Virus record (IMG/VR): IMGVR_UViG_3300025141_000022
Coordinates: 32,001 to 96,000 of that record
Source: a virus
Strand: one strand, 5' to 3'
DNA: 64,000 nt
Positions 36,362-64,000 of this stretch are shown one piece after another (the first letter of the stretch is position 1; each line of letters opens with the position of its first letter). The translations under genes were made by a program, and so were the position numbers. Below the pieces are notes generated by a model. The model was not told the origin of the DNA and did no database searches. It saw nothing but the letters and a program-made list of their open reading frames with translations.

Positions 36362-39300
36362 ATGAGTGTTAAAGATTTATTTGAAAAACAAAAATTAAAA
36401 GTTATAGCTAATCAATCTCCTGACAGCCAAGCTTCCGATGTTGAGTCGGCCGATTGGGTTGCCTCAAAGATGGCCAGTGATAAAACTGTTTATCCAAGAA
36501 TTGATTTTACAACCGCATCAAACTTTGCTCGTTGGGGCTCTGCAGAACAGTATTATAAAGACGCCTGGACTAGAATTGCAGATCAGTATCCTTATGATGG
36601 CTCTAAAACTGAAAAGCAACAGTGGATCCAAAACTCGTCACAATTTGATTTATTCATATTCGACACAGAATATCCCAGGACCACTGGATATGTTACCCTA
36701 TCGTATAACGGCGGTTCAGGATGGGGAAATACATCTTCTTCTGGAATTAGTGCCGCACCATCTGGCGGTTATGGATTCCCTTCTGATGTAGAGTATATTG
36801 AAATCTTAGGTGGACCGCATACCTCCTCTGGTGGAATGGTAGGCAAATCCCTACATTCAGTCTTTACTAGTTCCAATAAGTTTCATGACGATCTGACAGC
36901 TTCATATGATTTTAGATATGGAACAAGAGAATCAAACTTAAAATATGATCTTAATTATGTCAGTGGCGGTGTAACTTTAGAATTTTGGTTCAAAAAAGAA
37001 TCTTTCGATGCTACCAAGACACGAAAAGAAATTATATTTGACTTATGGAATGGCAAGGCATCATCGAGCACAGACTATGGTCGCCTCACGGTTGAGTTAA
37101 CTTCATCACATGAAGCAGGGACGCCGTTTAGATTAACCTGTATGTCGGGCACAACTGGTGTCAACTTCGGATTGTTGGGCTCGGATGTTACAACTGGTTC
37201 ACTAGAAAGTTGGCAACACTACGCTATTTCTGTAGGTAACACCGGAAATGGCCATCTACAAGCAAAATTGTATATTTCTGGTACACTTAATGACGAAAGA
37301 GTATTCAACAATCAAGCATTCACGACTCCAGTTACAGGAGCACTAAACGCTTATATCGGAGCACTGAGGACAGCCCCATCAGGCGCTACAGATGTTTCTT
37401 TAACTAGTTCATGGAAAGGTGCTGGTAAATTATCAGCTTCTATGGATGAGTTTAGATACTGGAAAGGACTTCGTACAGCTAAAGATATAGGAAGAAACTG
37501 GTGGACACAATATGCCGGCGGCTCCAATACAGATCTTTCTAATACATCACTGGGTGTGTATTATAAATTTAATGAAGGCGTTTGCGAAATTGAAAAGCAT
37601 GATACTGTGCTTTTGGACTATTCTGGACGAATTACAAATGGATCTTGGGTTGGATACACACTGGGCGCAAGAAATACAGGATCTGCAATTGTTTCCTCTA
37701 GTTATACATCGGCCTCAGCCGAATTTCATGATCCAATTATCTATAGAAACCATCCTACAGTAGCTGCTACATGTGATAGACTTTTAGTGTCTGGCTCCGA
37801 GTGGGATTTATACAACAACGCAACGATTTTTGGAAGTATACCAGAATGGATTACAACTGACGACGATCCAAGCACCGGCACAGGCGCAAATCAATTATTG
37901 CAGCTAACACAGATAATGGGTAGCTATTTTGATACAGTGCATGCACAAATTGATTTCTTAAATCAGATCAAAGATCCAGCATATATGAGTGGCAGTACTT
38001 TAAGTTCTAGAGCTTTTGAGCATTCTAAAAGGCTTCTTGAAGATCAAGGATTGCTAGTGCCAGAGCTGTTTATAGATGCAGACATTATAAGTCAAATTGA
38101 TCAAAGAGACGAAACGCGTGAATACGAGATGGATCTTGTTGATGTCAAAAACATGATTTATCAAAACATATATAATAATTTGACTTACATGTTTAAGTCC
38201 AAAGGTACAGAAAAGAGCCTTAGAAACATGCTCCGATGTTTTGGTGTGGATGACGAACTTATTAAGATTAATCTGTACGCCGATTCAGTTAAATACAAAT
38301 TTCTAGATAACTATCGCACTATCTCAGTAAGAAAGAACTATGCTGATTTTAATGATCCAGATCGATTCGACTCATCTGTGTATCAACAGACTGCTAGTAA
38401 TAATGCAGATAGCGTATCATTTATTTCGGGTTCTGGAGATGACGCCAAAGAGCCATCATTGGGGATGACCACGACATGTGAAGTTTATTTCCCAAATAAA
38501 TTGCCAGAAGATCATGAAGCATATTTTGATACACCATTTACAACGGCTTCCGTTTGGGGTATGCATACAGCAGATGGAGATAATCCAACTGACTTTGCCT
38601 ATACAACAGCCACCAACTACGCTAATTTCCATGTATATGCGATCAGGGATGAATTAGAATCACCACACGTTTCTTTCATGCTTTCTTCTTCGGCGCCCTA
38701 TTATATGCCAACGCTGACGAGTAGTTTGTTTTACGATGTATATGATGGGGATAGATGGCACCTATCGGTAAGGGTCAAGCCTCAGCCGGTTGACTTAGTG
38801 GCAAGTGGAAGTAGTGGTAGTTATGATGTAGAGTTCCATGGCGTGCAGATGATAATGGGAACTGCACTCAATGAGTTTTTAGCTACAGGTTCGATGACAA
38901 ACGCACAAGGTAAAGCATTCCTGAAATCAGGAAAGAGGCTCTATGCCGGCGCCCAAAGAACAAATGTTACAAGCTCTGCCGTAGTGAAATATAGTGATGT
39001 AAGACTCTCTTCTGTGAGATATTGGGCCGATTATCTTGAATTAGATGCCTTACATGCCCATGCAAAAGATTCTAAAAATGTTGGCGTACTGTATCCTGAT
39101 AGGAGCATTAGTGCAGCCAACACAACATTAAACAATAGAAAAATTCACAAAGCAAACACATTGGCTCTTCATTGGAGCTTCAATAATCTTTCTAGCTCCG
39201 ATGATGGTGGAGATGCAGTTGGCACCGCTGGCTCCAGTGATGCAGGGTTTTGGATAGAGGATGATACATCTGGCTCTGTTACACTTAAAAGTAGAGATGG

Positions 39301-42300
39301 CTGGATGGGCGGAATCACGGGCCCACAACACACCGCCCGAGGCAGCTACTACATGGCTAGTGATACAGGCAGTATTTCACAGCAGCACATTTCTACGATG
39401 AAGCAAAACATACCTGAAGCTATGAGTATGACCGATCAGATTGAGATTCGTTCACAAGATGATTTGACGTTCACAAAGGATTCGCGGCCAATAAACATGT
39501 TCTATGCAATCGAGAAGAGTATGTATCAGACGATCTCTGAAGAAATGCTCAACATGTTTGCTACAATTGTTGAATTTAATAATCTTATTGGCGAGCCAGT
39601 ACATAGATATCGACAAGAATATAAAGATTTGTCTGTACTGCGACAAATGTTTTTTGAAAAGGTAAAAAATACACCAGATTTAGATAAGTATATTCAATTT
39701 TATAAGTGGCTTGATAGTGCATTGTCAATATTACTAATGCAACTAATGCCAGCTTCAGCAAATTCATCTAATGGTATTAGAACACTAGTAGAAAGCCACG
39801 TCTTAGAAAGAAACAAATATTGGAATAAATTTCCAACATTAGAAATGAAAGTGGATGATCCTGAATCCGGCGCCGAAGGTATCAATAAGCACCTGTATAA
39901 TTGGAGATTTGGGCACGCTCCAATAAGCAAAAGTGAAAGAGATAATGTTTTTTGGTGGAACCAAAGAGCGGAAAGGGATGAGGATATTTCTACCCTTGCT
40001 GGTGCAGCCATTTCATCTTCTGTTGCCGATGTCAACACAGACAGAGCAAGGATGTTATCGTCAAGTGTACAGGTATTGACTAGAAAATACACCACACCAT
40101 TTAGATTTGCCGTAGATGAATCAAAAGAATATCGTGGTGGAGTTAATGCAGAGAAGAACAAGAAGCGCGATCTGGTTTACACCATGACCACTCCAGCCGG
40201 CCATATTAATGTTCCAACAGAGATTCCAAAGAATATTATGATTGTTGATGATATTGATGTTGGTACAATGGATCGCGGCCCAACTCGGCCTGGCAATAAT
40301 GATTTGGACATTCTTGAGCCAAACAGAAAATACAAGTACAATTTTAAGCTTCGCACATTTAAAGACGATCAGGATCCCAAAGACTCATACGTTTCAATAA
40401 TGAAGGGTTCCTTTGCGGTACCATTCGTCATTGTCAGTTCTTCAGTTACCTCTGGATATAACGCAGACTTTATTGATAAATTTATGTCTGGAGCACAAAT
40501 TACTAACTTACATCATGACGCGTATGGACCGGATTACGAAGTGCCGATGCAAGGCCCGTTCACTAACAAATATGTTGGAGGACATCAGAGCCGTCATATT
40601 GAATTGAATTCATATGCTTCCCGCGCAGCAGGTTCTGCATCAGCACATGCCGGCTTAGATAGTCATCTGACACGTCCTGAAGCTTGGAAATTGCTCTTTG
40701 GACCGACAGTATGGGAAGCTGCAGCGCATGATACTGTAGCGCTCGTCTCTGCCTCTATGTTGGGTTTTGTGGGTGCAGACTATCCTCACCCTGTCGGAAA
40801 CCCCGGCGAGCCCTCATACCCCGTTACAGCGGCTTTAAAGGCAACTCGATATAGAGAAGAGCACGCTAAGCGCCCGGTAAATATTCGGAATATCATGCTT
40901 ACAACCGGCTCTTACACTTTAGGTGCCGGCCACGAATTGTTGCGACACGCGGCTCAAACAAAGGCCCCTACGGTTCTTGGCAACTATAGAAAGCCTTACA
41001 ATTATGTGCATACTGCTGGACGGATAACACAGAGAAGGTATCTAAGAGACTTTTCAGGCTCTTCTGTCTTGCCGGAAATTTTAACTGGCTCTGGCCTACA
41101 TGCAACGACTAACCCGCATGCCTTGATTGGAATTTATAATCCCAGATATGGTGGAGTTGGTGTTGTGTTTGGCAGGGATCAATCACAACTATTTAGGAAT
41201 AGAAAGTCCGACGATTCAGCATACGAGGATGGCCGAAGTGTCTTTGAAATGCCGAGAAGGCAAAAACAAGAAGTTGTATTTGTAAATAGATTTTCCGCTC
41301 CTGGCTCTTGGGAAACCAGTCACGGGTTCTTAGATGTACACTCTGGAGAATACTCAGTATATAATAGCTTAAACTATAGAAATATGTTTGTCCGTGGTTC
41401 CTCGTCAGGCGAGGGTAATGCATCAATTTATAGAGTTTCAAACCATATGACTAGAGACATGTCTCACCTTACAAGAGAAACTAGAGATGGTCTTGCGGCA
41501 TTATTACAGCGTCCTGCTGGTCGATTCGGAATTGACTCTGTATATGGTGCCGTAACGGCTGAAGATTATGATGCCTCAGCATCATTCCACAAAGTTCCTA
41601 GAAATCTTCTTAGAAGGCTAGAGTTTAATAAGACTGGCTCATATGATCTCTCATCGGAAGGTGGCCCATCGGTTGGAGCAAGCCTTAATAGTGAAACGTT
41701 CACAACGGCTTCGAAGTACGATAACTTCTACATTCAGCACCCTATTCCAAGATCAGATTTCCAATATAAGTGGATTCATGATTCTGCAGGTCGCTCTATG
41801 AGAACGGGTAGCCATTGGAGTAAAAAGTGGCAGCAAGGCGACTTATGGTTTGGGTATGCTCCGGTTGACGGACTACTCTCAGGTTCTGATCCCGATAGTC
41901 CTGAAATGTGGGCCTCGGCTTTCACATGGCCGACCAGCAGTGATTACGGATTTGTTACTGCATTATCAGGTGGTGGAGTAGCAGAAGGTAAATTAATAAA
42001 CTCTGCTAGTTACGCCGGCCATGCTAACAGCGGATCCGCCAAGTTCCTTTTTGCTCTTAATGAAAGAATACATACCGGGTCCGACAAGGGATACAACAAC
42101 AAAGCAGACACAAACCTCAACACCGACGCGCTTGGCCGCCAAGCATATAGAAGCTATAGATTCAATTGGGCAATGAAAAACTTCCCAATTGTAGATCCAG
42201 TTGTGGCAGAGTCTAACTCACTGGGCCATTTTGCTTCAGGAGCACACTCGCCCCCAGGAATCAGTGTAGGTATTAATAGTGACGGCGGTGCGATTGATCC

Positions 42301-45300
42301 CGACCTTCGCACGACCCCGGAGAAACGCGAAGGAAGAGCCGGTATTGGTATTTATCCAATAGATGGCGCCACTGACGTGTTCGATAGTTACAGGTGGATT
42401 ACAGCTTCTTATTGGGCCGGCCAAGGTGGTGATGAAACCCTCGGCCGCAATCCGCATGTGGCCTTTGAGGCCATGGTGATAGCCGCTGATGGACCCAAAG
42501 AGTTTGGAGGAGTGTGGAACAACGTCAAGACCGGTTCTGGTGATGATAAATGGCATCGCTGGATAACTCTTGCCGATGATAATGATATGGAAGAACATTT
42601 CGCTCCCCCTGATGGTGCAGCCATTTCTCACCGCGATTTGGTTACAAATGTTGAATTGACAAACGCTTTGATTCTACAAAGAAACCGTGGACCCCATGGG
42701 TGGCCATCATGGAAACAAATTAGAGGCTCAGAGCATCCAGTTGTGATAGCTCAAAGAAAAACAAATACGATTTCTGTACTAGATGAGCCAGTTACTATAA
42801 CGTTGCCAATGACAGCTAGCAGTACAACACTGTCCTTGAGCCCGTATGTTAAATCATGGCGAGGCCACAGGTTTACAAATTATGTGGAACCCGTTGTATC
42901 AAGAAACCACCCAATGGTCACAATTGTTGGAGATGCAGCGGTAACACACACATACAACAATAATCTAGAAATGTTTTCAAACCCTGTACTAAACGAGAGG
43001 TTAGGCACATTTAGCTCTAATGAAGAAGGCAATCAGATGTATGATTCTCTATTGCCGACATACGCGACAGCCACAGGTATTACTCGTGTAGGAGGCTTAC
43101 AGCGACCTTCATTCGGCCTCAAGTACACCGAAACAGTTTTCCCACGCAAAGAGAATGCCTATCAGCGCAAGTCTTATTATAGAGAAAACTGGAATACAAT
43201 GTATTGGAAGAATAAGAGATGGGAAAGAATGGAAGGTCGCGGTGCGCTATTTGGAATCCCCTTCGGCTTGCCAATTAGTCACTCCAATCATCCTTCTGCC
43301 GGCGGCTTTGTTGAAGGCCGACATGGGCTGTCCCAGTCATATTGGCCATTTGCTGCCACCAATCATGGCGTTGTACAGGACGCTTCGAATACGCCGGGGC
43401 TTGCATTTGTAAGAGTTGCCTCCGCTAGCGTTTGGCCCCTGGACGCAAGGCAAAACTTTGCTTATGCCCCAATTGCACCGGTCCTTGGATGGGATTATAC
43501 GAGCAGCGTTGACTACGGATATGGCACAACGAATGATGGAAACCCCTTCGGAAATGGGATTAACCCAGAACAATTAGGAGAGGATTTTCAACTGCATGCA
43601 ACAGGTACTTTTCGAACTCTAAGTTCTGATGGTGGCCTTCGTGCAGCTATTGCCGGGCACCCGACAATGAGCTATTTCGGTTACAGCCCCGGCTCACGAA
43701 TACCAGATCCTGCGATTAATGGTTCTAACTCTTCATGGTTTTATGTTCGTGGAGCCCCTTGTGGCATTCTGCAAAATAGTTTTACACAATTTTCCTGTTC
43801 GTGGAATGAAGAACTTGAGCGCCAATGGGAACAGTCCACTGGATTAAGTGCCGCCGAGATAAGCACTCAACGCCAATACGTTTTAGGCAAAGGGCCAAAA
43901 AGCCGGCCAATGTTTATGGCAGGTCCGATTTATGCGAGAAGGCATACACTTCCGACAGCATCTTCGCTATATTCTCCTTCTCATGGCTTTGCCTCCATCG
44001 AAATCATGGCCGACACGACCGCAACCCCTGGAGGTACAAACCATTGGAGACTGTCTGGCTCAAATACCATAAATACAGATCAAATGTTTGGAGGCGACAC
44101 TCTGTGGGAAGCCGGCGATCAGGCCGCAGCCCAGGGTTCTTGCTCCTTGGATGCCCCGTTCTATGAATCTTATGAGGATTATGCTAAAGATCTAAAATCA
44201 AGAGGAAAAGGGTACGGCCTGATCCCAGAGTTTAGGATTTCCGATCATATGGAAGATTATATTGTCAATCATGACGGTAATTTCATGACAGAAAACTTAG
44301 ATTACTTTAATGTTACTGGGGCTTCTGGAGTTTCAGGGTCTAGTGAAGACGACTTCTTTAAAATATACAGCAATACAGACTTTATGAAGCACTTTGAAAA
44401 GATTAATAATGATCATGATTTTACTGGCGGCCCAGCGTCTATCTCGTTAAAAATGAAGGCGATAAAGAAATTCGTTCCATATAGTAGTTTTTATCCTGCT
44501 CTTCACACTGTGGAAATGTCAAAATTGTTTGCTAAGTGTTATGGCGAGTATGTTATAAATCCTGCCCGACCCGCAGATAACGAAGCCGGGGATACCTTTA
44601 AGTGGGGTGCTATGAACAATGAACAAGCGGCATTTTGTAAACCCTTCTTTGGCCCTGGAGTGTTGTTTAATGCGATAAAATCAGGAATTGCAGTAGACTA
44701 CCCATTTACTACTGGTTCTACCACAACATTTGCGGCTCATGAAGCTGTCGCAGCACCGTATTGGCCTGTCCTTGCTGGCTGGTCCGGTCTTCCCGTGTCG
44801 GCTTCTACGCTGGCCGGCGGCGCAGGACACAACTGGGGCGCGATCCCTTGGCTAGTAGAAGATAAAACTGGACATACAGCCAATAGCTCACTGAGTATGA
44901 GTTATGACTATTCCTCTCAAAAGATGCTGGGCGTCAAACATGGAAACGCAGATGGTCCAGGCTATCGCGGCTTTCTGGAATCCACCGCCGAGTTGTTGGC
45001 ATTTTGTGCTCAAAATAACAATATGTTAAATTGGAGCAGCTATTCAAGCAACGTAGATCATGGATCAGCCCGTCTGCTATATACCGCTGAAAGTACTGTT
45101 TATAATCCGCAGGCGTCTTATTACAAACGCTTGCCATTTGAGGCTCTAGTGGAGCCAGAAAAATATGTTAAGGATCAGTGGATCACATGGGATGAGCCAC
45201 ATCCATCGTGCTCGTTTACAAGAAGCTACGCCGGCGGAGGCCACATGCCTGAAGACGGAACATGGTCAGCGACCTTTACGCCCTCTATGGGTACTGCCTC

Positions 45301-47518
45301 ATGGAATGGCGACGGGGATATGCGATATAAACTGGCTATGAACAACTTCTTAGCAGAGGTGCCCACATTCTTCTTAAAGGGTGCAGGGATGTCAACTATG
45401 GTATCGCGCCCAGAATCCGATCCGCAATTCGGTGTTGCTGAGCGAGGCAAAGTATATGCTGCTATGGTTAAACTTAGAAAAAGTCGCTCAAAGACCGGGC
45501 AAGGCCGCACCGTGTATGATGTATCTGGTACTTTACAACAGGATGGTTTAGGTTATGAGCGCCCATCTGAGCCATATCCAGAAACAATTACAATGTACAG
45601 CAGACCTTCAGCTTTTGGACCACCAACTTATTATTCTTTCATGGGTTTTTATCCACAGTATACGCCTCCTTATTATGATGGAGAGGCTTGGGCCATCTTA
45701 AGGTTTACCGGCTCGGATGAAGGAATTACGCCCAACGGCTTTGGGGGTCAGTTCAATAAATTTACCCTAGATGAGATTTTACAACACACTCAGGTGGAAT
45801 ATGTTAGGGTATCACACACTGGATCTGTCTGGGCTGTAGTGCCGCATCAGTCGGGATCGGGACTAGCTTATCGGGATGGGCTGTGTTTACACGAAAAAGT
45901 TAACGATCAGGCAATGCAAGTGTCCGCATCATTAAATCTTTTCCAGAAAGCAGAAATTAAATCTGTTGAATATGATGCAATTACCGGTCTACCATTATCA
46001 GTCACTGATGATCCAACAGCGAACTATCAAGTTTGGGCAATTCAGCCTAAATGGGAAACGCCAATTCTTAACTTTAAGGGCGTTGATGTCACTATGCCAA
46101 AATACGGCTCAGGTTCGTGCGCCCGAGGGATGTGGCATCAATATGGAAGAACTCCGACAGGCTCCGAGGGAATTTATATGGAAATTGTAGATGTGCCAGA
46201 ATCATATATTCTTAATGGGCCCACTGGCCTAGGTCAATTTGATACTCACAACGGCCATGCACCAATTCACCATATTGATAGTAGACAATATGTTGATTAT
46301 TATACTGGTACCGACTCGTCGGTTTCGGGCATCGGTGCGCTTATATATGGAAACGCCCCCGCCACCGCCGTCAGTGATACACAAGCCGCCCGAGAAGCTG
46401 GTTTAAACAAGACTGGCTCTTTGGCAGATTTAGTAGGATTCAGTCAGCAGCCAGTCAAGTTGGGCCAGACCGCACAGTCAAAGACGGTTTCTGAAGCAGT
46501 CATCGCCGTACCATTTATGGAGAGAAATGGCGAACGAGTGCTGTTCAACATTAGCAGAGACACGATCAATGAAGCACAATACAAGCTCATTGGTGGAGCC
46601 CGCCGCGAATTGGGACTCTCTTCGGACGGGTATGATATAAATCCAGGCGATACTATTATGTCAATGGTTGAAAAAATGGGAAGATATGTATTCCCACCAA
46701 AGATGGACTTTATTACAAATGAAGATGTTGAGCCGTATGCGATGTATATATTTGAATTTCAACACACCTTCGATCAAACAGATTTGATAAATATGTGGCA
46801 AAACTTGCCGCCAAAATCCGCCACAAAGGTGGAGACACAAACAGTAACTATTACGCATGAATTATTAGCCTCAGAATTGCTTGGCTTGCAGCAACAAGAG
46901 AGCGGCAAGAAGCTTCCAAATGAGCTTCAATGGATGGTGTTTAAGGTGAAGCAAAAGGCAAATAAAGATTATTTCAGTAAAATCTTTGGCTCAAACTCTA
47001 AACAAGATACAGCGAATCGGACAGCATTCTCAGCAGTGAACACAAATACGTTTAGATTTAATTTTGGCGAGTTGACCAATGATACTGTTTCGAGTCAAGA
47101 GCAGGCGCCAGATTATAGTTATAACTGGCCGTATGACTACTTCTCACTTGTAGAGTTGGCTCAGCTGGATGTATCTGTGACATGGGGAGATGTGCCATTA
47201 CCGGGAACTACCGCGATATCAGTACCACAATATTCAGCAGCAGGAACAAATATGCAAGCATCTAGACTGCAAGTTGGCCAAGAACCTCTCATCGCGGCCC
47301 CAGGACTTGTAACTCAATTGGACTTTTCGAATCCCCGCACCGGTGGCACCCGCGCTACGGCATCTCCCGTCACGACAGCTAATGCAGATATTTTAGCCTC
47401 AGCAGTAGAATTTTCAGCTACTGCATCACCAGTCGCAGCTGCAGCCACTGCAGTAACTTCTACAATTACGGCCACTGCTGGTAGTGCTAAGTTGGATGCT
47501 ATTGTGAAGAAAATATAA
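36362..47518 (+). CDS. Giant baseplate/tail protein with LamG-like domains and a gp7/gpI-like segment, 3718 aa
   Basis: LamG-like VTLEFWFKK..WQHYAISV..MDEFRYW and WHLSVRV..SVRYW; YMFKSKGTEKSLRNMLRCFG wedge motif; single uninterrupted ORF. Confidence 0.75.
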   Translation: MSVKDLFEKQKLKVIANQSPDSQASDVESADWVASKMASDKTVYPRIDFTTASNFARWGSAEQYYKDAWTRIADQYPYDGSKTEKQQWIQNSSQFDLFIFDTEYPRTTGYVTLSYNGGSGWGNTSSSGISAAPSGGYGFPSDVEYIEILGGPHTSSGGMVGKSLHSVFTSSNKFHDDLTASYDFRYGTRESNLKYDLNYVSGGVTLEFWFKKESFDATKTRKEIIFDLWNGKASSSTDYGRLTVELTSSHEAGTPFRLTCMSGTTGVNFGLLGSDVTTGSLESWQHYAISVGNTGNGHLQAKLYISGTLNDERVFNNQAFTTPVTGALNAYIGALRTAPSGATDVSLTSSWKGAGKLSASMDEFRYWKGLRTAKDIGRNWWTQYAGGSNTDLSNTSLGVYYKFNEGVCEIEKHDTVLLDYSGRITNGSWVGYTLGARNTGSAIVSSSYTSASAEFHDPIIYRNHPTVAATCDRLLVSGSEWDLYNNATIFGSIPEWITTDDDPSTGTGANQLLQLTQIMGSYFDTVHAQIDFLNQIKDPAYMSGSTLSSRAFEHSKRLLEDQGLLVPELFIDADIISQIDQRDETREYEMDLVDVKNMIYQNIYNNLTYMFKSKGTEKSLRNMLRCFGVDDELIKINLYADSVKYKFLDNYRTISVRKNYADFNDPDRFDSSVYQQTASNNADSVSFISGSGDDAKEPSLGMTTTCEVYFPNKLPEDHEAYFDTPFTTASVWGMHTADGDNPTDFAYTTATNYANFHVYAIRDELESPHVSFMLSSSAPYYMPTLTSSLFYDVYDGDRWHLSVRVKPQPVDLVASGSSGSYDVEFHGVQMIMGTALNEFLATGSMTNAQGKAFLKSGKRLYAGAQRTNVTSSAVVKYSDVRLSSVRYWADYLELDALHAHAKDSKNVGVLYPDRSISAANTTLNNRKIHKANTLALHWSFNNLSSSDDGGDAVGTAGSSDAGFWIEDDTSGSVTLKSRDGWMGGITGPQHTARGSYYMASDTGSISQQHISTMKQNIPEAMSMTDQIEIRSQDDLTFTKDSRPINMFYAIEKSMYQTISEEMLNMFATIVEFNNLIGEPVHRYRQEYKDLSVLRQMFFEKVKNTPDLDKYIQFYKWLDSALSILLMQLMPASANSSNGIRTLVESHVLERNKYWNKFPTLEMKVDDPESGAEGINKHLYNWRFGHAPISKSERDNVFWWNQRAERDEDISTLAGAAISSSVADVNTDRARMLSSSVQVLTRKYTTPFRFAVDESKEYRGGVNAEKNKKRDLVYTMTTPAGHINVPTEIPKNIMIVDDIDVGTMDRGPTRPGNNDLDILEPNRKYKYNFKLRTFKDDQDPKDSYVSIMKGSFAVPFVIVSSSVTSGYNADFIDKFMSGAQITNLHHDAYGPDYEVPMQGPFTNKYVGGHQSRHIELNSYASRAAGSASAHAGLDSHLTRPEAWKLLFGPTVWEAAAHDTVALVSASMLGFVGADYPHPVGNPGEPSYPVTAALKATRYREEHAKRPVNIRNIMLTTGSYTLGAGHELLRHAAQTKAPTVLGNYRKPYNYVHTAGRITQRRYLRDFSGSSVLPEILTGSGLHATTNPHALIGIYNPRYGGVGVVFGRDQSQLFRNRKSDDSAYEDGRSVFEMPRRQKQEVVFVNRFSAPGSWETSHGFLDVHSGEYSVYNSLNYRNMFVRGSSSGEGNASIYRVSNHMTRDMSHLTRETRDGLAALLQRPAGRFGIDSVYGAVTAEDYDASASFHKVPRNLLRRLEFNKTGSYDLSSEGGPSVGASLNSETFTTASKYDNFYIQHPIPRSDFQYKWIHDSAGRSMRTGSHWSKKWQQGDLWFGYAPVDGLLSGSDPDSPEMWASAFTWPTSSDYGFVTALSGGGVAEGKLINSASYAGHANSGSAKFLFALNERIHTGSDKGYNNKADTNLNTDALGRQAYRSYRFNWAMKNFPIVDPVVAESNSLGHFASGAHSPPGISVGINSDGGAIDPDLRTTPEKREGRAGIGIYPIDGATDVFDSYRWITASYWAGQGGDETLGRNPHVAFEAMVIAADGPKEFGGVWNNVKTGSGDDKWHRWITLADDNDMEEHFAPPDGAAISHRDLVTNVELTNALILQRNRGPHGWPSWKQIRGSEHPVVIAQRKTNTISVLDEPVTITLPMTASSTTLSLSPYVKSWRGHRFTNYVEPVVSRNHPMVTIVGDAAVTHTYNNNLEMFSNPVLNERLGTFSSNEEGNQMYDSLLPTYATATGITRVGGLQRPSFGLKYTETVFPRKENAYQRKSYYRENWNTMYWKNKRWERMEGRGALFGIPFGLPISHSNHPSAGGFVEGRHGLSQSYWPFAATNHGVVQDASNTPGLAFVRVASASVWPLDARQNFAYAPIAPVLGWDYTSSVDYGYGTTNDGNPFGNGINPEQLGEDFQLHATGTFRTLSSDGGLRAAIAGHPTMSYFGYSPGSRIPDPAINGSNSSWFYVRGAPCGILQNSFTQFSCSWNEELERQWEQSTGLSAAEISTQRQYVLGKGPKSRPMFMAGPIYARRHTLPTASSLYSPSHGFASIEIMADTTATPGGTNHWRLSGSNTINTDQMFGGDTLWEAGDQAAAQGSCSLDAPFYESYEDYAKDLKSRGKGYGLIPEFRISDHMEDYIVNHDGNFMTENLDYFNVTGASGVSGSSEDDFFKIYSNTDFMKHFEKINNDHDFTGGPASISLKMKAIKKFVPYSSFYPALHTVEMSKLFAKCYGEYVINPARPADNEAGDTFKWGAMNNEQAAFCKPFFGPGVLFNAIKSGIAVDYPFTTGSTTTFAAHEAVAAPYWPVLAGWSGLPVSASTLAGGAGHNWGAIPWLVEDKTGHTANSSLSMSYDYSSQKMLGVKHGNADGPGYRGFLESTAELLAFCAQNNNMLNWSSYSSNVDHGSARLLYTAESTVYNPQASYYKRLPFEALVEPEKYVKDQWITWDEPHPSCSFTRSYAGGGHMPEDGTWSATFTPSMGTASWNGDGDMRYKLAMNNFLAEVPTFFLKGAGMSTMVSRPESDPQFGVAERGKVYAAMVKLRKSRSKTGQGRTVYDVSGTLQQDGLGYERPSEPYPETITMYSRPSAFGPPTYYSFMGFYPQYTPPYYDGEAWAILRFTGSDEGITPNGFGGQFNKFTLDEILQHTQVEYVRVSHTGSVWAVVPHQSGSGLAYRDGLCLHEKVNDQAMQVSASLNLFQKAEIKSVEYDAITGLPLSVTDDPTANYQVWAIQPKWETPILNFKGVDVTMPKYGSGSCARGMWHQYGRTPTGSEGIYMEIVDVPESYILNGPTGLGQFDTHNGHAPIHHIDSRQYVDYYTGTDSSVSGIGALIYGNAPATAVSDTQAAREAGLNKTGSLADLVGFSQQPVKLGQTAQSKTVSEAVIAVPFMERNGERVLFNISRDTINEAQYKLIGGARRELGLSSDGYDINPGDTIMSMVEKMGRYVFPPKMDFITNEDVEPYAMYIFEFQHTFDQTDLINMWQNLPPKSATKVETQTVTITHELLASELLGLQQQESGKKLPNELQWMVFKVKQKANKDYFSKIFGSNSKQDTANRTAFSAVNTNTFRFNFGELTNDTVSSQEQAPDYSYNWPYDYFSLVELAQLDVSVTWGDVPLPGTTAISVPQYSAAGTNMQASRLQVGQEPLIAAPGLVTQLDFSNPRTGGTRATASPVTTANADILASAVEFSATASPVAAAATAVTSTITATAGSAKLDAIVKKI

Positions 47519-58197: not shown

Positions 58198-58719
58198 ATG
58201 TACATTTTGGGACTTGATATAAGTTCCTCCAAGATCGGAATCGCACTCTTAAAAGACGACAACATTGTTATAAGTGAGTCGATTAAGTTTAAGAGCGGAT
58301 TGTCTTTGGAGGAACGTGCAATTAATTTTGAAAAACGCATGCGCGAGATAGATCGTAAGTATGTTGTCTTTTCTACATACGTTGAACAGCCAGCTATGAT
58401 GTTTAAGGGTGGCAAGACCACAGCATTCACAATGGCTACCTTGCAGCGATTTAACGGTATGTGCTCGTACATCGTAAGAAAAGTATTTGATGACGATCCG
58501 ATTCTTATAAATCCCAGATCTGCCAGAGCCAAGCTTGGCATAAAGACGCCCCGAGGACGCCCAAGTAGAGAAGTCAAAAGGTGTATAATTGAACATGTCG
58601 AAAAAAGGTTTGAGGGTCAATTCAAATACAATCTCACGCACAAGGGAAATCCACAACCGGGAACGGATGACCGGGCCGATGCATTAGTGATCGCTTTAGC
58701 TGGCCCTTTACTTAAGTGA
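58198..58719 (+). CDS. RuvC-like Holliday junction resolvase
   Basis: ILGLDISSSKIG, TYVEQP, DDRADALVIA (RNase H-fold acidic residues). Confidence 0.85.
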   Translation: MYILGLDISSSKIGIALLKDDNIVISESIKFKSGLSLEERAINFEKRMREIDRKYVVFSTYVEQPAMMFKGGKTTAFTMATLQRFNGMCSYIVRKVFDDDPILINPRSARAKLGIKTPRGRPSREVKRCIIEHVEKRFEGQFKYNLTHKGNPQPGTDDRADALVIALAGPLLK

Positions 58720-58721
58720 TA

Positions 58722-58730
58722 ACTATTTAT
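58722..58730 (+). promoter_or_regulatory. Putative late-promoter motif ACTATTTAT heading the ENWR-leader cassette
   Basis: Exact copy in the 18-nt gap before ATG 58738. Confidence 0.6.
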
Positions 58731-58737
58731 TAGTACT

Positions 58738-59739
58738 ATGCGATCACACAAGCTTATTTTAGAGAATTGGCGAAAGTTTTTAAAAGAAGTAGACGCGGGC
58801 CCAACGGCTGCGATGCCTGCTCATTTAGATCCTAAAGTAAAGACACAGGCCGACTATGATACCCTGGACCAGATGGGCTATCAAGTTCTTAAGGAGCTTG
58901 GTCGTGGGCTATTTGGTATAGTATACCAAGTGGAAAATAAGCAAAGCGGAAAAAGGTTAGCCGCCAAGGTTGTTAAAGCAGACAATCGAGAGGCAGAAAA
59001 TTACCAGTTCGCCATGGACAACAAAGCCTCCATGCCAGAAGAGTTTGGTAAATACCTACCAGAAGTATATGAGGTGGCCCCCGGCCACGATGGTTATAAT
59101 ATTATCCTCATGGAAGAGTTAGTACCTTTGGATCCCCAAGTTGCTCAAGAATTGTTTGCAGTGGAAACAGATGATGCAAATCAGGAAACTCCCGATTCTA
59201 AGAAACATGAAAAGATCTTCAGAGATCCAGAAGCTCTAGCTGAATTGGTTGGTGAATCTGTATACGCAAACAGAATATTACATCAATTAAATCTTGGTTT
59301 TAAGGAGATGAGAAGGCTTAGAATGGTAGCAAGAAAAGCAGTTACCAAAAAAGTTCACAACGATCTTGACTCCCTTGTGATGACCGTGTATGGTACTATA
59401 GTAAGAGAGATAGATGATCAGAGCGCAGCAATATATAAAGCTTTCGAAAAAGACTTGAAAGAAACTATGTCATATTATCTCAACAAGCAAATTGTACCAG
59501 TCCACCAGCCAGAGCCAGATGAGGAGTATTTGGAAACATGGACCTCTGGAGGTCTTGAAGGGACAAGAGCTTTGTTTCCAGAAGCTAAAGGTTTAGCACG
59601 AGCTATGAAATATTTTATGCAAGATAAGAATTGGCGACCAAAAGACGTGCATTGGAAAAATGTAATGGCAAGACCATCAACTAAAGATATGGTTATTGTT
59701 GATTTAGGATTATTTGAAAAAGGAATATTTGTATTATGA
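58738..59739 (+). CDS. Atypical protein-kinase-like enzyme with ENWR leader, 333 aa
   Basis: LGRGLFGIVY (Gly loop), AAKVVK (Lys), ILMEEL (hinge), DVHWKN (catalytic loop), VIVDLG (DFG equivalent). Confidence 0.85.
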   Translation: MRSHKLILENWRKFLKEVDAGPTAAMPAHLDPKVKTQADYDTLDQMGYQVLKELGRGLFGIVYQVENKQSGKRLAAKVVKADNREAENYQFAMDNKASMPEEFGKYLPEVYEVAPGHDGYNIILMEELVPLDPQVAQELFAVETDDANQETPDSKKHEKIFRDPEALAELVGESVYANRILHQLNLGFKEMRRLRMVARKAVTKKVHNDLDSLVMTVYGTIVREIDDQSAAIYKAFEKDLKETMSYYLNKQIVPVHQPEPDEEYLETWTSGGLEGTRALFPEAKGLARAMKYFMQDKNWRPKDVHWKNVMARPSTKDMVIVDLGLFEKGIFVL

Positions 59740-60350
59740 AAATTATAATTGAAAATTGGAGAAGATATTTAAAAGAAGAGGTTGATCTTCAGGCTGCACA
59801 ACAGCTTATTGATGCGAACCCATATTTAAAAGGTAAATTAATGGCAACACCAGAGAGTATTATTGAAGGAGAGGGTTATGTTCTTGCCGTATCGGAAGAA
59901 TCACTGGGGCATATTAAAGATCGCCATATGGACGCTAGCGCCCCAGGCTCGCTGTTTCTTCCCGAAGTTGATTTAGGAGAGGTGATGAGAAGCTTGTTGT
60001 CTATGCCCCCAAGCGAAGAGTCAGGAGGCAGAGTGAAGTGGTTAGGCGTGGACGCCGGCATGCCAGTTGGAAAAATGGGCGTTAAACTTGGCGATCCAGA
60101 GGAAGTGGCAAAAATGCAAGATTATAAAATGCCCGGCGGAAGAAACGAAATGGTTAAATTAACTTCTGGTGAACGAGAGCCAACAAATGAAATTAGTCTA
60201 ATCACTGCGGAGCTTGGCGATCTGGGTGGTAAGAAATTATTATCTTTGATCACTGCCTTCCCCGGCGGCATAGAGGTTAATGGAAAAGAGATGCCCATGG
60301 ATAGAAACGATTTTGCTGCACAGGGTTTTTACTTTGTTGTATCACAATGA
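59736..60350 (+). CDS. Putative EndoU/toxin-type RNase with ENWR leader, 204 aa
   Basis: SLGHIKDRH..GSLF, VDAG.PVG, PTNEISLIT and LITAFP match the layout of polymorphic-toxin RNase domains. Confidence 0.5.
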   Translation: MKIIIENWRRYLKEEVDLQAAQQLIDANPYLKGKLMATPESIIEGEGYVLAVSEESLGHIKDRHMDASAPGSLFLPEVDLGEVMRSLLSMPPSEESGGRVKWLGVDAGMPVGKMGVKLGDPEEVAKMQDYKMPGGRNEMVKLTSGEREPTNEISLITAELGDLGGKKLLSLITAFPGGIEVNGKEMPMDRNDFAAQGFYFVVSQ

Positions 60351-61138
60351 AACTCCTACTTGAAAATTGGCGACTGTATTTGAACGAGATTACAACCCTT
60401 GATTCTGAACTAAAGCAGGGTTTTGCCGAAGCAATAGAAGATTCGCAATTCTGGACGCTACCCAATGCCGAAGATGATGTTGACATTGGCAACCACCCTG
60501 ACGAGATGGAAACCCCAGCCAGCGAGGCATTGAGAATTGCGCTAAACGAAAAAGCACAAGAGCTTGACACTGATTTATATTTTATTGTAACTGTTTCAAA
60601 TGTACATGTGTTATCTAAAGATGATCCGCATGGAGGGTATCCAAGTAATTGGATGTCGCATGGTATGTATCAGGGCCCTCAATCCGGCCATCATGTGATA
60701 TGGATAGAGCTTCGACCATTGGGAGATGATTATGAAATTTCTGAACTGAATCCTTCTGAATTGATAAAGAAGATCTCAAGAACCATTAACCATGAAATGG
60801 TACATTACAAACAACTAAAAAAGCAAGCTGAATCAAAGGGGATTAGTGAAGAAGACGCATGGCAGCAAATGATAGATGACCCGGCCCAACTACCACAAAC
60901 CAGCGATAGAACAGACTATCTGTCAAGGCATCCAGAAGTTGACGCTTACGCTCATGAAGCCGCCGAAGAATTAATAGATAAATATGGCGGTCGAAGGGCT
61001 CTACAACTAATTAAACAAAGAGACTCTGATGTTGTTGGAGTTTTGGCAGACTACAGAGAAGTTTTCAAAGACGACCGAGAAACAATGAAAAAGTTTTTAA
61101 AAAAGCTGTATTCACAAATTATGAGCAAGGAACAATAG
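60347..61138 (+). CDS. HExxH zinc metalloprotease-like protein with ENWR leader, 263 aa
   Basis: TINHEMVHYKQ and downstream YLSRHPEVDAYAHE (third ligand). Confidence 0.72.
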   Translation: MKLLLENWRLYLNEITTLDSELKQGFAEAIEDSQFWTLPNAEDDVDIGNHPDEMETPASEALRIALNEKAQELDTDLYFIVTVSNVHVLSKDDPHGGYPSNWMSHGMYQGPQSGHHVIWIELRPLGDDYEISELNPSELIKKISRTINHEMVHYKQLKKQAESKGISEEDAWQQMIDDPAQLPQTSDRTDYLSRHPEVDAYAHEAAEELIDKYGGRRALQLIKQRDSDVVGVLADYREVFKDDRETMKKFLKKLYSQIMSKEQ

Positions 61139-61139
61139 A

Positions 61140-61703
61140 ATGAAACACGAATTGATAATGGAAAATTGGCGACAGTTCTTAAATGAAGAAGATGAAGAGC
61201 AGCTTGAAGAAGGCTGGAAAGAAAAAGTAGCCGGCTTAGCAGCAGTCGGGTCCATAGGGCTTGGGGCGCCTAATATGGCACACGCTGGACCTGGAGATAA
61301 TATAAGAGATAAATATCAATCAACTTTGCAAATGGCAAAAGAAAAAGGACAACAAGTTATCGATAAATTACCGGCGCCAATTGATCGCACATCTGGTGCA
61401 GGAGCTGAAGCAGAAAGTGGAACGTCTACTTCTGATGGCTATCAACAAAATGCTGATGGAACTCACGAATTTAGAGTTAAATTGCCTATTGAGAAATATG
61501 AAACACACGGCGGCAAGACTTTTGGCGAGATGAAGGCTCGAAACGGCCTTATGCAGGCGTTGCAGCAGTCGGGGATTGTAACCGGTGATACGATATCCGG
61601 TATATCGCTGTCTTATGATCGAGCTAATGGTCAAGTAGTTGCTAATTGGAGCCCAACATCATCGGCGACGGCTTCTGCTATTTATAAAGCTATGGGCAAC
61701 TGA
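61140..61703 (+). CDS. Hypothetical protein with ENWR leader and an internal signal-peptide-like segment, 187 aa
   Basis: Leader, then LEEGWKEKVAGLAAVGSIGLGAPNMAHA. Confidence 0.7.
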   Translation: MKHELIMENWRQFLNEEDEEQLEEGWKEKVAGLAAVGSIGLGAPNMAHAGPGDNIRDKYQSTLQMAKEKGQQVIDKLPAPIDRTSGAGAEAESGTSTSDGYQQNADGTHEFRVKLPIEKYETHGGKTFGEMKARNGLMQALQQSGIVTGDTISGISLSYDRANGQVVANWSPTSSATASAIYKAMGN

Positions 61704-61711
61704 AAATACTT

Positions 61712-62548
61712 ATGAAGCTCTTAATGGAAAACTGGCGGTATTACTTAACCGAAGAACAACAACTATCGGATGAGTTTTTAGAGTTTCTGTTTTCCGACAG
61801 AATAAGTGCTTTTATGAGCGATTCCACACTAAATGAGGTGGAGAGTTTAGAAACCAAAGCTAAAAGGCTAGCCAAGAAATATGGCGTCCCGTTTGCTATA
61901 GCTATGGGCATACTTACTGGTGCAGCAGGAAGCAAAGTAGTTGGAGACATGCAAAGTCCCGCTAACGACCCAGAAATTGTACAACAGATAGAGAAGCCCT
62001 CTCCGCGCTCCTCATTGCCGCCAGGGTATTCTGATCTGACTAATCTGCAGGCTATGGAAAAAGCATGGGAGACTATTGATGGTAAGCAACATCAAGCCGC
62101 CCCCGTTTCTGGCGGATATCCAACAGCGCAAGGTATGATGCCATTTACATATGTGCCTGCTGTAGAGTTATCTGGTGGCGACATTCTACCTATGTCACTA
62201 ATGACCGCCGATGAGTACAGGGCATTCATACTGGATAAACTAGAGAGTGGAAACCCACAGGAGGTTATTTACCTTAAGAATATGGTTTATGGGGATACCG
62301 CAAAATGGCTTTCAGGAACGGGAGAGTCAGACTTCAGGGTCACTAATGGGCTACCAGTTTTGCCACCAGAGTGGTCGATTGCACATGATGTATTCGCTAG
62401 CGAAGTAGAAGAACGAATAAATAAAGTAGTAGAATATTTGCAGGAAAATCCAGATCATAGAGAAGCCGTTGCTGTGGAGCTTAATCTTGCTAGCGTAGAT
62501 GATTTAGAACCTTTCATAAACAGTCAGTATGCAAAATTGGCTAGATGA
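61712..62548 (+). CDS. Hypothetical protein with ENWR leader and an internal TM-like segment, 278 aa
   Basis: Leader, then KAKRLAKKYGVPFAIAMGILTGAAG. Confidence 0.7.
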   Translation: MKLLMENWRYYLTEEQQLSDEFLEFLFSDRISAFMSDSTLNEVESLETKAKRLAKKYGVPFAIAMGILTGAAGSKVVGDMQSPANDPEIVQQIEKPSPRSSLPPGYSDLTNLQAMEKAWETIDGKQHQAAPVSGGYPTAQGMMPFTYVPAVELSGGDILPMSLMTADEYRAFILDKLESGNPQEVIYLKNMVYGDTAKWLSGTGESDFRVTNGLPVLPPEWSIAHDVFASEVEERINKVVEYLQENPDHREAVAVELNLASVDDLEPFINSQYAKLAR

Positions 62549-62558
62549 TTAAAAACGC

Positions 62559-62587
62559 TTGACGCCATAGATCAACTGTGTTATATT
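62559..62587 (+). promoter_or_regulatory. Sigma70 promoter with extended -10
   Basis: TTGACG (62559-62564), 17 bp, TGn-TATATT (62582-62587), upstream A-tract, GGAGGA RBS before ATG 62604. Confidence 0.8.
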
Positions 62588-62773: not shown

Positions 62774-63709
62774 ATGACTTCAAAATATAAAATTATTTCA
62801 GATATTCTGGGCGATAGTTATCAGGTCAGCGGTGAGCGCCTGTTTCATTGCCCGTACTGCAAACACCATAAAAGAAAATTATCAATTAATATTGATAAGA
62901 ATGTATACAAATGCTGGATTTGTGATACGAATGGTCGTAATTTAAGACGCATTGTCCGCCGCTTTGGGACGTTTAAGCACCTTCAAGAGTGGGACACTAT
63001 CTCAGGTCGAATTGATATCAACGACTTTGATAATCTGTTTCGTGAAGAAGAGAAATCAACAGAGATAGAGCAGATAATAAAACTACCCGAAGATTTTATA
63101 TCCTTGGCCAACAACGATTTGCCTAAATCATCCAGATGGCCACTGAGGTATCTAAAGCATAGGGGTGTTACCAAGAAAGATGTACTAAAATGGAAGATAG
63201 GCTATTGTGATTCTGGGCCCTATGCGGGTAGAATTATTATACCATCGTTTAATATGGACGGGCATGTAAATTATTATATCGCTAGAACGTATGATAATTC
63301 TTGGCCAAGATACAAAAATCCGCCAGCATCAAGAAATGTTGCATTTAACGAACTCTATATTGATTGGAATAAAGATTTAGTAATTGTAGAGGGTGTTTTT
63401 GATGCTATTATAGCCGGAAACAGTGTGCCTATTTTGGGCTCAACTCTTCGACCAAGTTCTCAACTAGTACGAAAAATTATCTACAATGATACGCCGGTTT
63501 ATTTAGCTCTTGACCAAGATGCCCAGCAAAAAGAAAACAAGATTATCAAAACACTTTTGCAATATGACATCGAGCTTTACAAAATTGATGTGTCTGGTTA
63601 TGAAGATGTCGGAGAGATGAGTAAAGAAGAGTTTTCTAAACGTAAGGAAAATGCGTACTTTATCTCTCAAGAAGACTATTTATTGACAGCGGCTATAAAT
63701 ACTATCTAA
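62774..63709 (+). CDS. DNA primase (zinc finger plus TOPRIM)
   Basis: HCPYCKHH..YKCWIC zinc finger, GRIIIP, VEGVFDAI, ALDQDA. Confidence 0.9.
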   Translation: MTSKYKIISDILGDSYQVSGERLFHCPYCKHHKRKLSINIDKNVYKCWICDTNGRNLRRIVRRFGTFKHLQEWDTISGRIDINDFDNLFREEEKSTEIEQIIKLPEDFISLANNDLPKSSRWPLRYLKHRGVTKKDVLKWKIGYCDSGPYAGRIIIPSFNMDGHVNYYIARTYDNSWPRYKNPPASRNVAFNELYIDWNKDLVIVEGVFDAIIAGNSVPILGSTLRPSSQLVRKIIYNDTPVYLALDQDAQQKENKIIKTLLQYDIELYKIDVSGYEDVGEMSKEEFSKRKENAYFISQEDYLLTAAINTI

Positions 63710-63723
63710 ATGAGGAGCTTTTT

Positions 63724-63912
63724 GTGGACGAAAGAGAACAAAAGATAAGATATGCCATTCAAAAGGCTATCAAAGAAATGAACTCTAAGCCAAGCGAAGA
63801 GTCAGTAGATTTGTTTGAAAAGGTTACTACGCTAATAAAAGAGCAGAAACTCAATCATGAACAACAGGCCGTTTTAATTGGAAAATTACTCGACTGGGAC
63901 TTAAACAAATGA
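63724..63912 (+). CDS. Hypothetical helical protein, 62 aa
   Basis: GTG start after GAGGAG; REQKIRYAIQKAIKE. Confidence 0.6.
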   Translation: MDEREQKIRYAIQKAIKEMNSKPSEESVDLFEKVTTLIKEQKLNHEQQAVLIGKLLDWDLNK

Positions 63913-64000
63913 AGATTGACATGAAAACATTAAGAGAGGTAGTTAAGCAAGAGCTTACAGAGGTGTGTGGAGCAGAAGCCGAAAACGCTCAGCAAGCTGT
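63909..64000 (+). CDS. 5' fragment of a gene running off the window end (MKIDMKTLREVVKQELTEV...)
   Basis: ATGA overlap with the upstream stop; frame open to the window end. Confidence 0.6.
   Translation, partial: MKIDMKTLREVVKQELTEVCGAEAENAQQA

Follow-up and report, generated by a model that had tools for sequence, protein, structure and literature searches.

The capsid targeting sequence (CTS) of the internal proteins (IPs) of phage T4, reportedly the subject of work by Mullaney and Black in 1996, is the closest described counterpart of the element considered here, a short N-terminal leader with the core ENWR that heads five neighbouring and otherwise unrelated genes of an uncultured virus and is a candidate head-loading and processing signal. 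These genes lie in a 64,000-nt stretch, called the window throughout, which comprises bases 32001-96000 of one 184,913-bp contig (IMG/VR record IMGVR_UViG_3300025141_000022); coordinates given as genome coordinates refer to the whole record. The genome has a G+C content of 42.5%, and nearly all of its genes are located on one strand.

In T4, the CTS (MKTYQEFIAE) is found in IPI, IPII and IPIII and, along with them, in Alt, and is removed by the prohead protease gp21 (PMC9026906, PMC3012670, PMC5694885). The CTS has 10 residues, and gp21 follows the cleavage rule L/I-x-E; for packaging, no more than the first 10 residues of IPIII are needed, with residues 4 and 7 responsible for targeting and residues 8 and 10 for processing, and foreign proteins up to the size of beta-galactosidase can be packaged through the CTS in 20-200 copies (PMC9026906). 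The internal proteins of T-even phages were described as "a highly diverse set" with the CTS alone in common (PMC3012670). In the T4 sequence itself, IPII and IPIII begin with MKTYQEFIAE followed by A, IPI with MKTFKEF...ITE followed by A, Alt with MELITELFDE and gp21 with MNEPQLLIE, while gp23 contains ...SFLTE65 followed by A. In giant phages of the phiKZ-like and SPN3US kind, the propeptides of inner-body and ejection proteins are cut by gp175/gp245 at S/A-x-E (PMC5694885, PMC9026906). The initial annotation of the window put the ENWR leader forward as a candidate new system; its principle, however, is that of the T4 CTS and internal proteins (PMC9026906, PMC3012670), and novelty of principle is not claimed here.

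The ENWR leader and its carriers

Five consecutive open reading frames (ORFs) on the + strand (58738-62548) begin with (M)K[LI][LI]xENWRx[FY]LxE and have nothing else in common; no Pfam or PHROG family is shared by their bodies, and three of the five bodies were singletons in BLAST clustering. All five leaders end with L-x-E. The genes are mostly coupled, with two ATGA overlaps among the four junctions and gaps of 1 nt and 8 nt at the other two. The pattern ENW[RK] has exactly five matches in the six frames of the 64-kb window, all at these N-termini, and a hidden Markov model built from the five leaders scored them at 27-32 bits, against 13 bits for the next match in the 185-kb genome, an internal copy at genome 10986. 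The five-gene set with a common leader and unrelated bodies, as well as the L-x-E end of every leader, had been pointed out in the initial annotation and was confirmed by ORF, six-frame and Pfam/PHROG checks; the genome scan with a leader model had been proposed there as a check. The accompanying claim that no other gene starts in this way holds for the window but not for the genome, in which further carriers were found outside the window.

The distribution of the leader was investigated by scanning IMG/VR with a back-translated leader pattern, and the counts obtained are those of the matches listed and represent lower bounds. At least 143 leader ORFs in at least 120 loci were detected, with M-K immediately before the motif in 114, and the full tag heads at least 190 distinct proteins of marine viral contigs, in line with the earlier suggestion that the motif may occur in other uncultured phages. 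A set of 147 tagged bodies, among the matches listed, was resolved into 86 unrelated clusters, with 57 singletons. Based on Pfam searches, the 75 representatives examined include NUDIX, AAA_33, Zeta_toxin, Peptidase_M23, Pkinase, tRNA_lig_CPD, HAD_SAK_1, HD_3, HNH_5 and PGDYG members, and most of them have no family. Complete relatives (184-203 kb) contain 3-10 strict ENWR sites each, nearly all on one strand and mostly clustered.

The tag is confined to this phage lineage: homologs of the genome are present in 155 of 179 tagged loci, and ~186,000 prokaryote genomes yielded only eight ENWR stretches, all of them on contigs of metagenome-assembled genomes (MAGs), seven of which carry homologs of this phage's genes. 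DNA of the lineage occurs in MAGs assigned to unrelated taxa, such as CP070664.1 ("WOR-3 bacterium chromosome") and a Pelagibacter sp. TMED166 MAG, and one was assembled as a 2.8-Mb "chromosome"; these cases are probably due to mis-binning or chimeric assembly and give no reliable hint of a host. A literature search for the ENWR leader returned unrelated words only, and a 20-aa tblastn query against deposited phages, short and by design insensitive, gave no match.

The composition of the leader was determined from 190 unique leaders, for which the search fixed E-N-W-R (positions 6-9) and did not require the end motif. Positions 3-5 are occupied by L, I, M or F, position 11 is F/Y in 88%, position 12 is L/I/V in 84% and position 14 is Glu in 76% of the leaders; many of those that deviate from the Glu14 pattern have (L/I)xE one residue further on. 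An acidic stretch follows position 14. The hydrophobic residues L4, L5, W8, [FY]11 and L12 fall on one face of a helix. AlphaFold2 models computed with natural alignments reached a mean predicted local distance difference test (pLDDT) score of 90.8 for the second cassette protein, with residues 1-12 below 50, and of 88.9 for the third, with residues 1-6 below 50; in both models the leader is predicted as a detached, low-confidence helix, followed by a linker, beside a confident body. The leader shows no Sec/Tat signature, i.e., a hydrophobic core of at least 10 residues after a basic N-region; it has charges at E6, R9 and E14, is amphipathic and leads into an acidic linker. At the nucleotide level, several synonymous codons deviate from the background (Leu5 CTT, 96% vs. 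25%; Leu3 CTC, 42% vs. 9%; Arg9 CGA, 48% vs. 14%; Lys10 AAG, 73% vs. 32%), and codons 7 and 11-14 show background usage while their amino acids are still conserved. The DNA upstream of the leaders is not conserved. The use of CGN after TGG may serve to avoid GGAG, and the remaining synonymous bias may have arisen from gene conversion or recombination between leader copies.

As a module, the tag is portable, and orthologous bodies may have it or lack it. The 135-aa protein at genome 149526 starts without a leader, and ENWR heads its relatives, which by sequence are of NUDIX type; the GGNVF family is leaderless in Flavobacterium phage immuto, and in marine contigs ENWR stands right before GGNVF. 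Nucleotidyltransferase orthologs were found with and without the tag, and the deoxyribonucleotidases of cultured phages are untagged. Other proteins of this genome begin with a leader of a second family, MKITKxxLKxIIxEE (window 63909-64000, genome 96991-97704, P0041, P0097 and others). Among the 120 listed homologs of the third cassette body, 71 have ENWR-type leaders, 10 have ESWR-like leaders and more than 25 have leaders of the second family (MKITRRQLRQIIKEEILLxE and similar). Both families close with Phi-x-E and then [I/V/A/S]-T at an equal distance from this body, and E14 is invariant in a 35-sequence alignment that spans both. Homologs of the second cassette protein show the same leader swaps, for example MKITRKKLRRLLKE. 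Because these swaps on constant bodies keep the Phi-x-E junction, the two tags are functional equivalents, with the junction under selection. As a separate observation, in phage immuto (NC_055915.1 97856-122434) the leaders MKKSQLRxIIKE and M(E)NFDLKKFLVENKL recur on several hypothetical proteins, and this phage may be a tractable system for testing such tags.

In the predicted proteome of the genome, the pattern W[RK]x[FY][LI]xE occurs nine times in all, eight times at residues 5-11 and once at the extreme C-terminus of an 840-aa protein. Three of the eight N-terminal matches, at genome 145758, 146372 and 175237, are located outside the window. The bodies of five additional carriers, two of them with degenerate leaders (Table 1), cluster with full-ENWR proteins of other phages. 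The C-terminal copy of the 840-aa protein reads NSWRKFLNG, close to the leader; T4 Alt, beside which this protein with leader copies at both ends may be set, is trimmed at both ends. The carrier that follows the prohead protease gene contains LDGHHRW, which is kept in relatives and is reminiscent of ParB/Srx-like domains; a Pfam search with this ORF returned no family.

Head genes and the portal-protease slot

The phage is a distant relative of T4. Its genome encodes terminase, portal, baseplate wedge proteins similar to gp25 and gp6, a gp21-type prohead protease (Peptidase_S77, PF03420, E 1.6e-32, above the cut-off) and a Gp23-type capsid protein (PF07068, E 4.7e-70), the propeptide of which contains [LI]xE at residues 25, 29, 50, 66 and 75. 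Just upstream of the capsid gene, in the place occupied by gp22 in T4, a 367-aa protein is encoded that consists of 23% acidic residues and contains 17 [LI]xE sites; by position and composition only, it is assigned as a putative gp22-like scaffold. The nearest cultured phages, judged by the capsid protein, are Microcystis phage Mel-JY01, Flavobacterium phage immuto and Rhodothermus phage RM378.

Loci fetched with the ENWR pattern often have the gene order TerL, portal, h274, h189, slot, h104, S77 protease, slot, h143, h141, with a tagged gene inside this module. Such a sample is biased, so 80 loci were fetched via the head gene h189 alone, from at least 590 relatives. About 15 of the 43 complete slots in this set have no extra gene, and a strict ENWR gene is present in two. 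Since only two of the 43 slots hold strict ENWR, the tagged protein is not a fixed part of the head module. Among the variable ORFs of at least 100 aa in the portal-protease slot, 29 of 37 are tagged, 19 with ENWR-like leaders (including LIFENWDKFINE, LIMESWRSYNNEE and IIMEGWRGYLTED) and 10 with MKITK-like leaders, compared with 22 of 694 ORFs outside the slot in the same loci (odds ratio 111, p = 6e-31, a ~25-fold enrichment). The Phi-x-[ED] end is kept in 15 of the 19 ENWR-like slot leaders. Within the head module itself, protein h143 (genome 111364-111795) starts with the MKITK-like MNKTELKKMLKPLIKECIKEAIFEE.

Two other placements of the tag were considered and rejected. The ENWR protein is not a conserved, scaffold-like member of the head module, given the two strict ENWR genes in 43 slots and the acidic protein upstream of the capsid gene as the scaffold; and the prohead protease is not a tag carrier, its conserved N-terminus, xLLREYYELCEGGxCQDLLTE, being a different motif. 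The h274 family, encoded beside the portal gene (genome 107360-108184), has a conserved internal LKx[FY]LNEExGRL in which N210, E212, R215 and L216 are invariant; its [FY]LNE, as found in the leader end, may be a protease site.

Cassette payload, upstream motif and neighbouring genes

The features of the cassette and the additional carriers are listed in Table 1.

Table 1. Coordinates of the cassette genes, their immediate surroundings and further tag carriers
Feature	Coordinates	Strand	Size	Leader	Remarks
RuvC-like Holliday-junction resolvase	window 58198-58719	+			phrog_159, E 4.6e-12; directly upstream of the cassette; context, not tag system
ACTATTTAT	window 58722-58730	+	9-mer		16 nt before the first cassette gene; candidate late-type promoter or regulatory element
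Cargo 1	window 58738-59739	+	333 aa	MRSHKLILENWRKFLKE; residues 1-17 (58738-58788)	protein-kinase-like, with long helical insert
Cargo 2	window 59736-60350	+	204 aa	MKIIIENWRRYLKE; residues 1-14 (59736-59777)	BECR-fold RNase-toxin-like
Cargo 3	window 60347-61138	+	263 aa	MKLLLENWRLYLNE; residues 1-14 (60347-60388)	invariant HExxH; putative zincin-type metallopeptidase
Cargo 4	window 61140-61703	+	187 aa	MKHELIMENWRQFLNE; residues 1-16 (61140-61187)	
Cargo 5	window 61712-62548	+	278 aa	MKLLMENWRYYLTE; residues 1-14 (61712-61753)	
Sigma-70-like promoter candidate	window 62559-62587	+			TTGACG, 17 nt, TG-TATATT; in the only real intergenic gap after the cassette
Extra carrier	genome 145758		203 aa	W[RK]x[FY][LI]xE at residues 5-11	
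Extra carrier	genome 146372-148894		840 aa	short N-terminal leader MNINKWRNFLNE	replication module
Extra carrier	genome 175237		282 aa		5'-3' deoxyribonucleotidase; phrog_2643, E 2e-21
Degenerate-leader carrier	genome 144931			degenerate	nucleotidyltransferase
Degenerate-leader carrier	genome 110339-111361			degenerate	gene directly after the prohead protease

The assignment of cargo 1 as a kinase, already made in the initial annotation, is supported by the GxGxxG (Gly-loop), AxK and DLG motifs, together with a partial match to the N-lobe of Pkinase (E 6e-6, under the Pfam cut-off) and a PHROG kinase match (E 1.5e-5); a homolog with GKGSFGTVY is present in a MAG contig. The RNase-like character proposed for cargo 2 received modest support, in that its best structural neighbours, YxiD, BrnT, CdiA-CT, MafB-CT and RelE, form a coherent list at Z 5.2-6.7, all below 8; H59, H64 and K101 are invariant among its homologs, and no immunity gene adjoins it. 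For cargo 3, the proposed metalloprotease function is retained as far as the invariant HExxH goes: H149, E150 and H153 are invariant in the 35-homolog alignment, as is the leader-closing E14, and the fold rows, all weak and non-significant, are zinc peptidases. Neither cargo 2 nor cargo 3 had a significant Foldseek match in the PDB. The description of cargoes 4 and 5 as membrane-directed has its basis in Gly/Ala-rich hydrophobic stretches only. In cargo 4 the stretch (~residues 30-50) follows the leader and an acidic linker, a layout that recurs in relatives, and in cargo 5 it spans ~residues 57-77. No family was found for either protein in Pfam or PHROG searches, and an atlas search with cargo 5 returned only low-score viral clusters.

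A late-type motif upstream of the cassette had been noted previously, and it proved to be real and non-random in its strand and intergenic bias. The 9-mer occurs nine times on the + strand of the genome and once on the - strand, with eight of the nine in intergenic positions, 8-70 nt before a start codon (window 58722, 32585, 4745 and 24; genome 118081, 164996 and others). It precedes the cassette, the gp25-like baseplate gene, the scaffold/MCP (major capsid protein) operon, a PhoH-like gene and a downstream cluster with the second tag. Related loci totalling 2.2 Mb contain 188 copies, against ~45 estimated by chance, and 137 of these copies lie within 120 nt of a start; the genes that follow are chiefly head genes (22 cases for h141, 6 for the scaffold), and ENWR-type genes account for 24 cases. 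The T4 late promoter TATAAATA, from which the 9-mer differs, is not enriched before genes in this genome. The pattern fits late co-expression of the cassette with the head genes, without proving it. Where A follows the 9-mer, the opposite strand reads TATAAATAGT.

The cassette is located between the RuvC-like resolvase and a DNA primase (62774-63709), which is preceded by a 52-aa membrane ORF, and not, as first described, directly after the baseplate module. The promoter candidate downstream of the cassette is the best + strand match (10/12), in a region whose total number of matches does not exceed that of shuffled sequences, and it probably starts the next transcription unit, consisting of the membrane ORF and the primase. 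Two giant ORFs of 2462 and 3718 aa are present in the baseplate/tail region (window 25156-32544 and 36362-47518). A family of small proteins (~65-105 aa) starting with MKVGDLVK or a near variant was also observed (genome 184070-184683, 143737, 182730, 1151 and 372), three of them in tandem at the contig end; this start may be another common N-terminus or may mark a small paralog family.

Interpretation and comparison with described systems

On balance, we regard it as somewhat probable that the ENWR leader is a head-loading and processing signal of the T4-CTS type in an abundant uncultured marine lineage of distant T4 relatives. In the proposed sequence of events, the amphipathic N-terminal helix would dock the protein into the prohead core during head assembly, the S77 protease of the gp21 family would cut after the Glu of [FY]-[LI]-x-E and free the mature protein inside the capsid, and this protein would enter the next host cell together with the DNA. 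For the cassette, this would mean a payload expressed with the late genes, in which a kinase, a BECR-type RNase and an HExxH protein are joined by two proteins that have hydrophobic segments. Docking, cleavage, packaging and injection are steps that we infer; what the sequences show is the tag with its modularity and its restriction to the lineage, its enrichment in the head module, a protease gene in the genome and a leader end that matches T4 cleavage sites. The types of cargo, with a BECR RNase lacking an immunity gene and a kinase in the cassette and Peptidase_M23, Zeta_toxin and HNH proteins in relatives, are those of effectors or entry proteins and suggest packaging.

The modular head-loading label envisaged in the initial annotation has thus gained from the protease, capsid and scaffold genes, the slot enrichment, the swappable leaders, the detached helix and the common motif, and has lost from the enzymes among the carriers. 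Several observations weigh against head loading. The tag heads proteins that are cytoplasmic in other phages, namely NUDIX proteins, HAD phosphatases, AAA_33 kinases and a nucleotidyltransferase; a tagged 5'-3' deoxyribonucleotidase is encoded in this genome and in at least seven relatives; and the tagged 840-aa protein and other carriers lie partly in the replication module. Taken at face value, the leader is borne by clearly non-virion enzymes, which the initial annotation itself had named as refuting its proposal. In addition, many head modules have no tagged gene (~15 of 43 slots empty, strict ENWR in two), the ENWR pattern was not found in the cultured relatives Mel-JY01 and immuto, Glu14 is absent in 24% of the leaders, the synonymous conservation in codons 3-5, 9 and 10 implies an extra effect at the nucleotide level, and the 9-mer, with a putative promoter role, stands only 8-70 nt from start codons. 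The ENWR carriers are, moreover, known from sequence alone.

Alternatively, the tag could be a cytoplasmic docking helix that recruits many enzymes to one phage or host hub, such as a nucleotide-metabolism or replication complex or a chaperone, with no packaging involved. Such a role agrees with its occurrence on the deoxyribonucleotidase, NUDIX, HAD, P-loop kinase, nucleotidyltransferase and 840-aa replication-module proteins, with the resolvase and primase genes that adjoin the cassette, and with a leader helix that has the amphipathic, detached character expected of a docking peptide. It would, however, leave the 25-fold enrichment of the portal-protease slot in tagged genes, the survival of the Phi-x-E junction through a change of leader family and the match to T4 cleavage sites unexplained, and no hub was identified; we consider this explanation unlikely. 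Still less probability is assigned to the tag as a recognition sequence for another modifying or activating enzyme, in the manner of ribosomally synthesized and post-translationally modified peptides (RiPPs), or as a pro-sequence under which toxic cargo stays inactive and which is taken off in the cytoplasm. The RNase toxin-like cargo without an immunity gene would suit such a role, but no candidate enzyme specific to the tagged loci was found, the neighbours being, in a simple tally, mostly head genes and core genes of the lineage.

Conservation could also operate mainly at the nucleotide level, with the ~42-nt leader acting as a translation-initiation or operator module or as a short patch of homology through which cassettes are shuffled by recombination, and with little function for the peptide. 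The strong deviation of the synonymous sites from the background and the tandem, coupled arrangement of the genes point in this direction. On the other hand, positions 7 and 11-14 keep their amino acids at background codon use, the upstream regions are not conserved, a leader of different DNA sequence substitutes on the same bodies, and avoidance of GGAG would account for CGN after TGG; a role in recombination could, besides, coexist with targeting, as was proposed for the T4 IP locus. We regard a mainly nucleotide-level explanation as very improbable.

A broader form of the head-loading proposal holds that the lineage (at least 590 relatives in one collection) pre-loads its capsid, by means of two interchangeable tags, with a large and rapidly shuffled set of active enzymes to be delivered with the DNA; we think this possible, although the chances fall somewhat short of even. 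The pre-loaded set, held equally tentatively, would include RNase toxins, protein kinases, peptidases, deoxyribonucleotidase, NUDIX proteins, HAD phosphatases and P-loop kinases. If true, the lineage would possess a natural, programmable means of protein injection with a far wider range than in T4, and the injected proteome of abundant uncultured ocean phages could be listed by motif search, yielding candidates for host takeover and counter-defence. It would also mean that ordinary metabolic enzymes are packaged by phages, which might reflect adaptation to oligotrophic hosts that grow slowly. The tag, the [FY]-L-x-E junction rule and the second tag can be tested directly as constructs, and for protein delivery they offer another choice besides the T4 CTS. 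Should packaging prove wrong, there would still be a detachable helix of 14 residues to explain on more than 86 unrelated families.

Among the described systems, the polymorphic toxins with MuF domains in temperate phages have variable toxin domains that are thought to be packaged in the head via a common N-terminal part. That common part is a whole folded, portal-bound domain and not a 14-residue helix, and no MuF domain was seen here. The cargo-loading peptides of encapsulins, by which unrelated enzymes are directed into an HK97-fold shell, resemble the ENWR tag in being short and portable, but they are usually C-terminal and uncleaved, serve a cellular nanocompartment and are unrelated to the tag in sequence. 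In phiKZ and SPN3US, as proposed for the ENWR carriers, head-internal proteins are processed after Glu by a gp21-family protease, and paralogs sometimes have identical N-termini; their propeptides, however, are mostly longer than 100 residues, have no single tag and have a small P3 residue, in contrast to the ENWR leader with 14-17 aa and L/I/V at P3, and the lineage differs.

The closest resemblance is to the T4 CTS. Both are short N-terminal peptides that form the sole common part of unrelated proteins, and both have an M-K start, Glu6, an aromatic core and aromatic-(L/I)-x-E as P4-P1; the [FY]-L-x-E end of the ENWR tag equals P4-P1 of T4 gp23 (F-L-T-E65|A) and of IPII/III (F-I-A-E|A). A likeness between the tag and LLNKWKPLLEG in the T4 gp23 propeptide was also considered and not used, as the spacing differs in the capsid protein of this phage. 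The two systems also have in common an S77 protease, a gp23-type capsid protein, a gp22-like scaffold and variable cargo loci, and in T4 the portal-protease slot has its counterpart in the position of genes 67, 68 and 22, which lie around gene 21. Packaging and cleavage were demonstrated for the T4 CTS, whereas the ENWR system is known here from genes. The ENWR tag has no sequence homology to MKTYQEFIAE, is 14 residues long instead of 10 and is built on the ENWR core, and its lineage possesses two interchangeable leader families. It also heads a far larger set of cargo, with 3-10 strict copies in each genome and at least 86 unrelated bodies, and full-size enzymes of metabolic type are among them, compared with the small, basic, DNA-bound proteins of T4.

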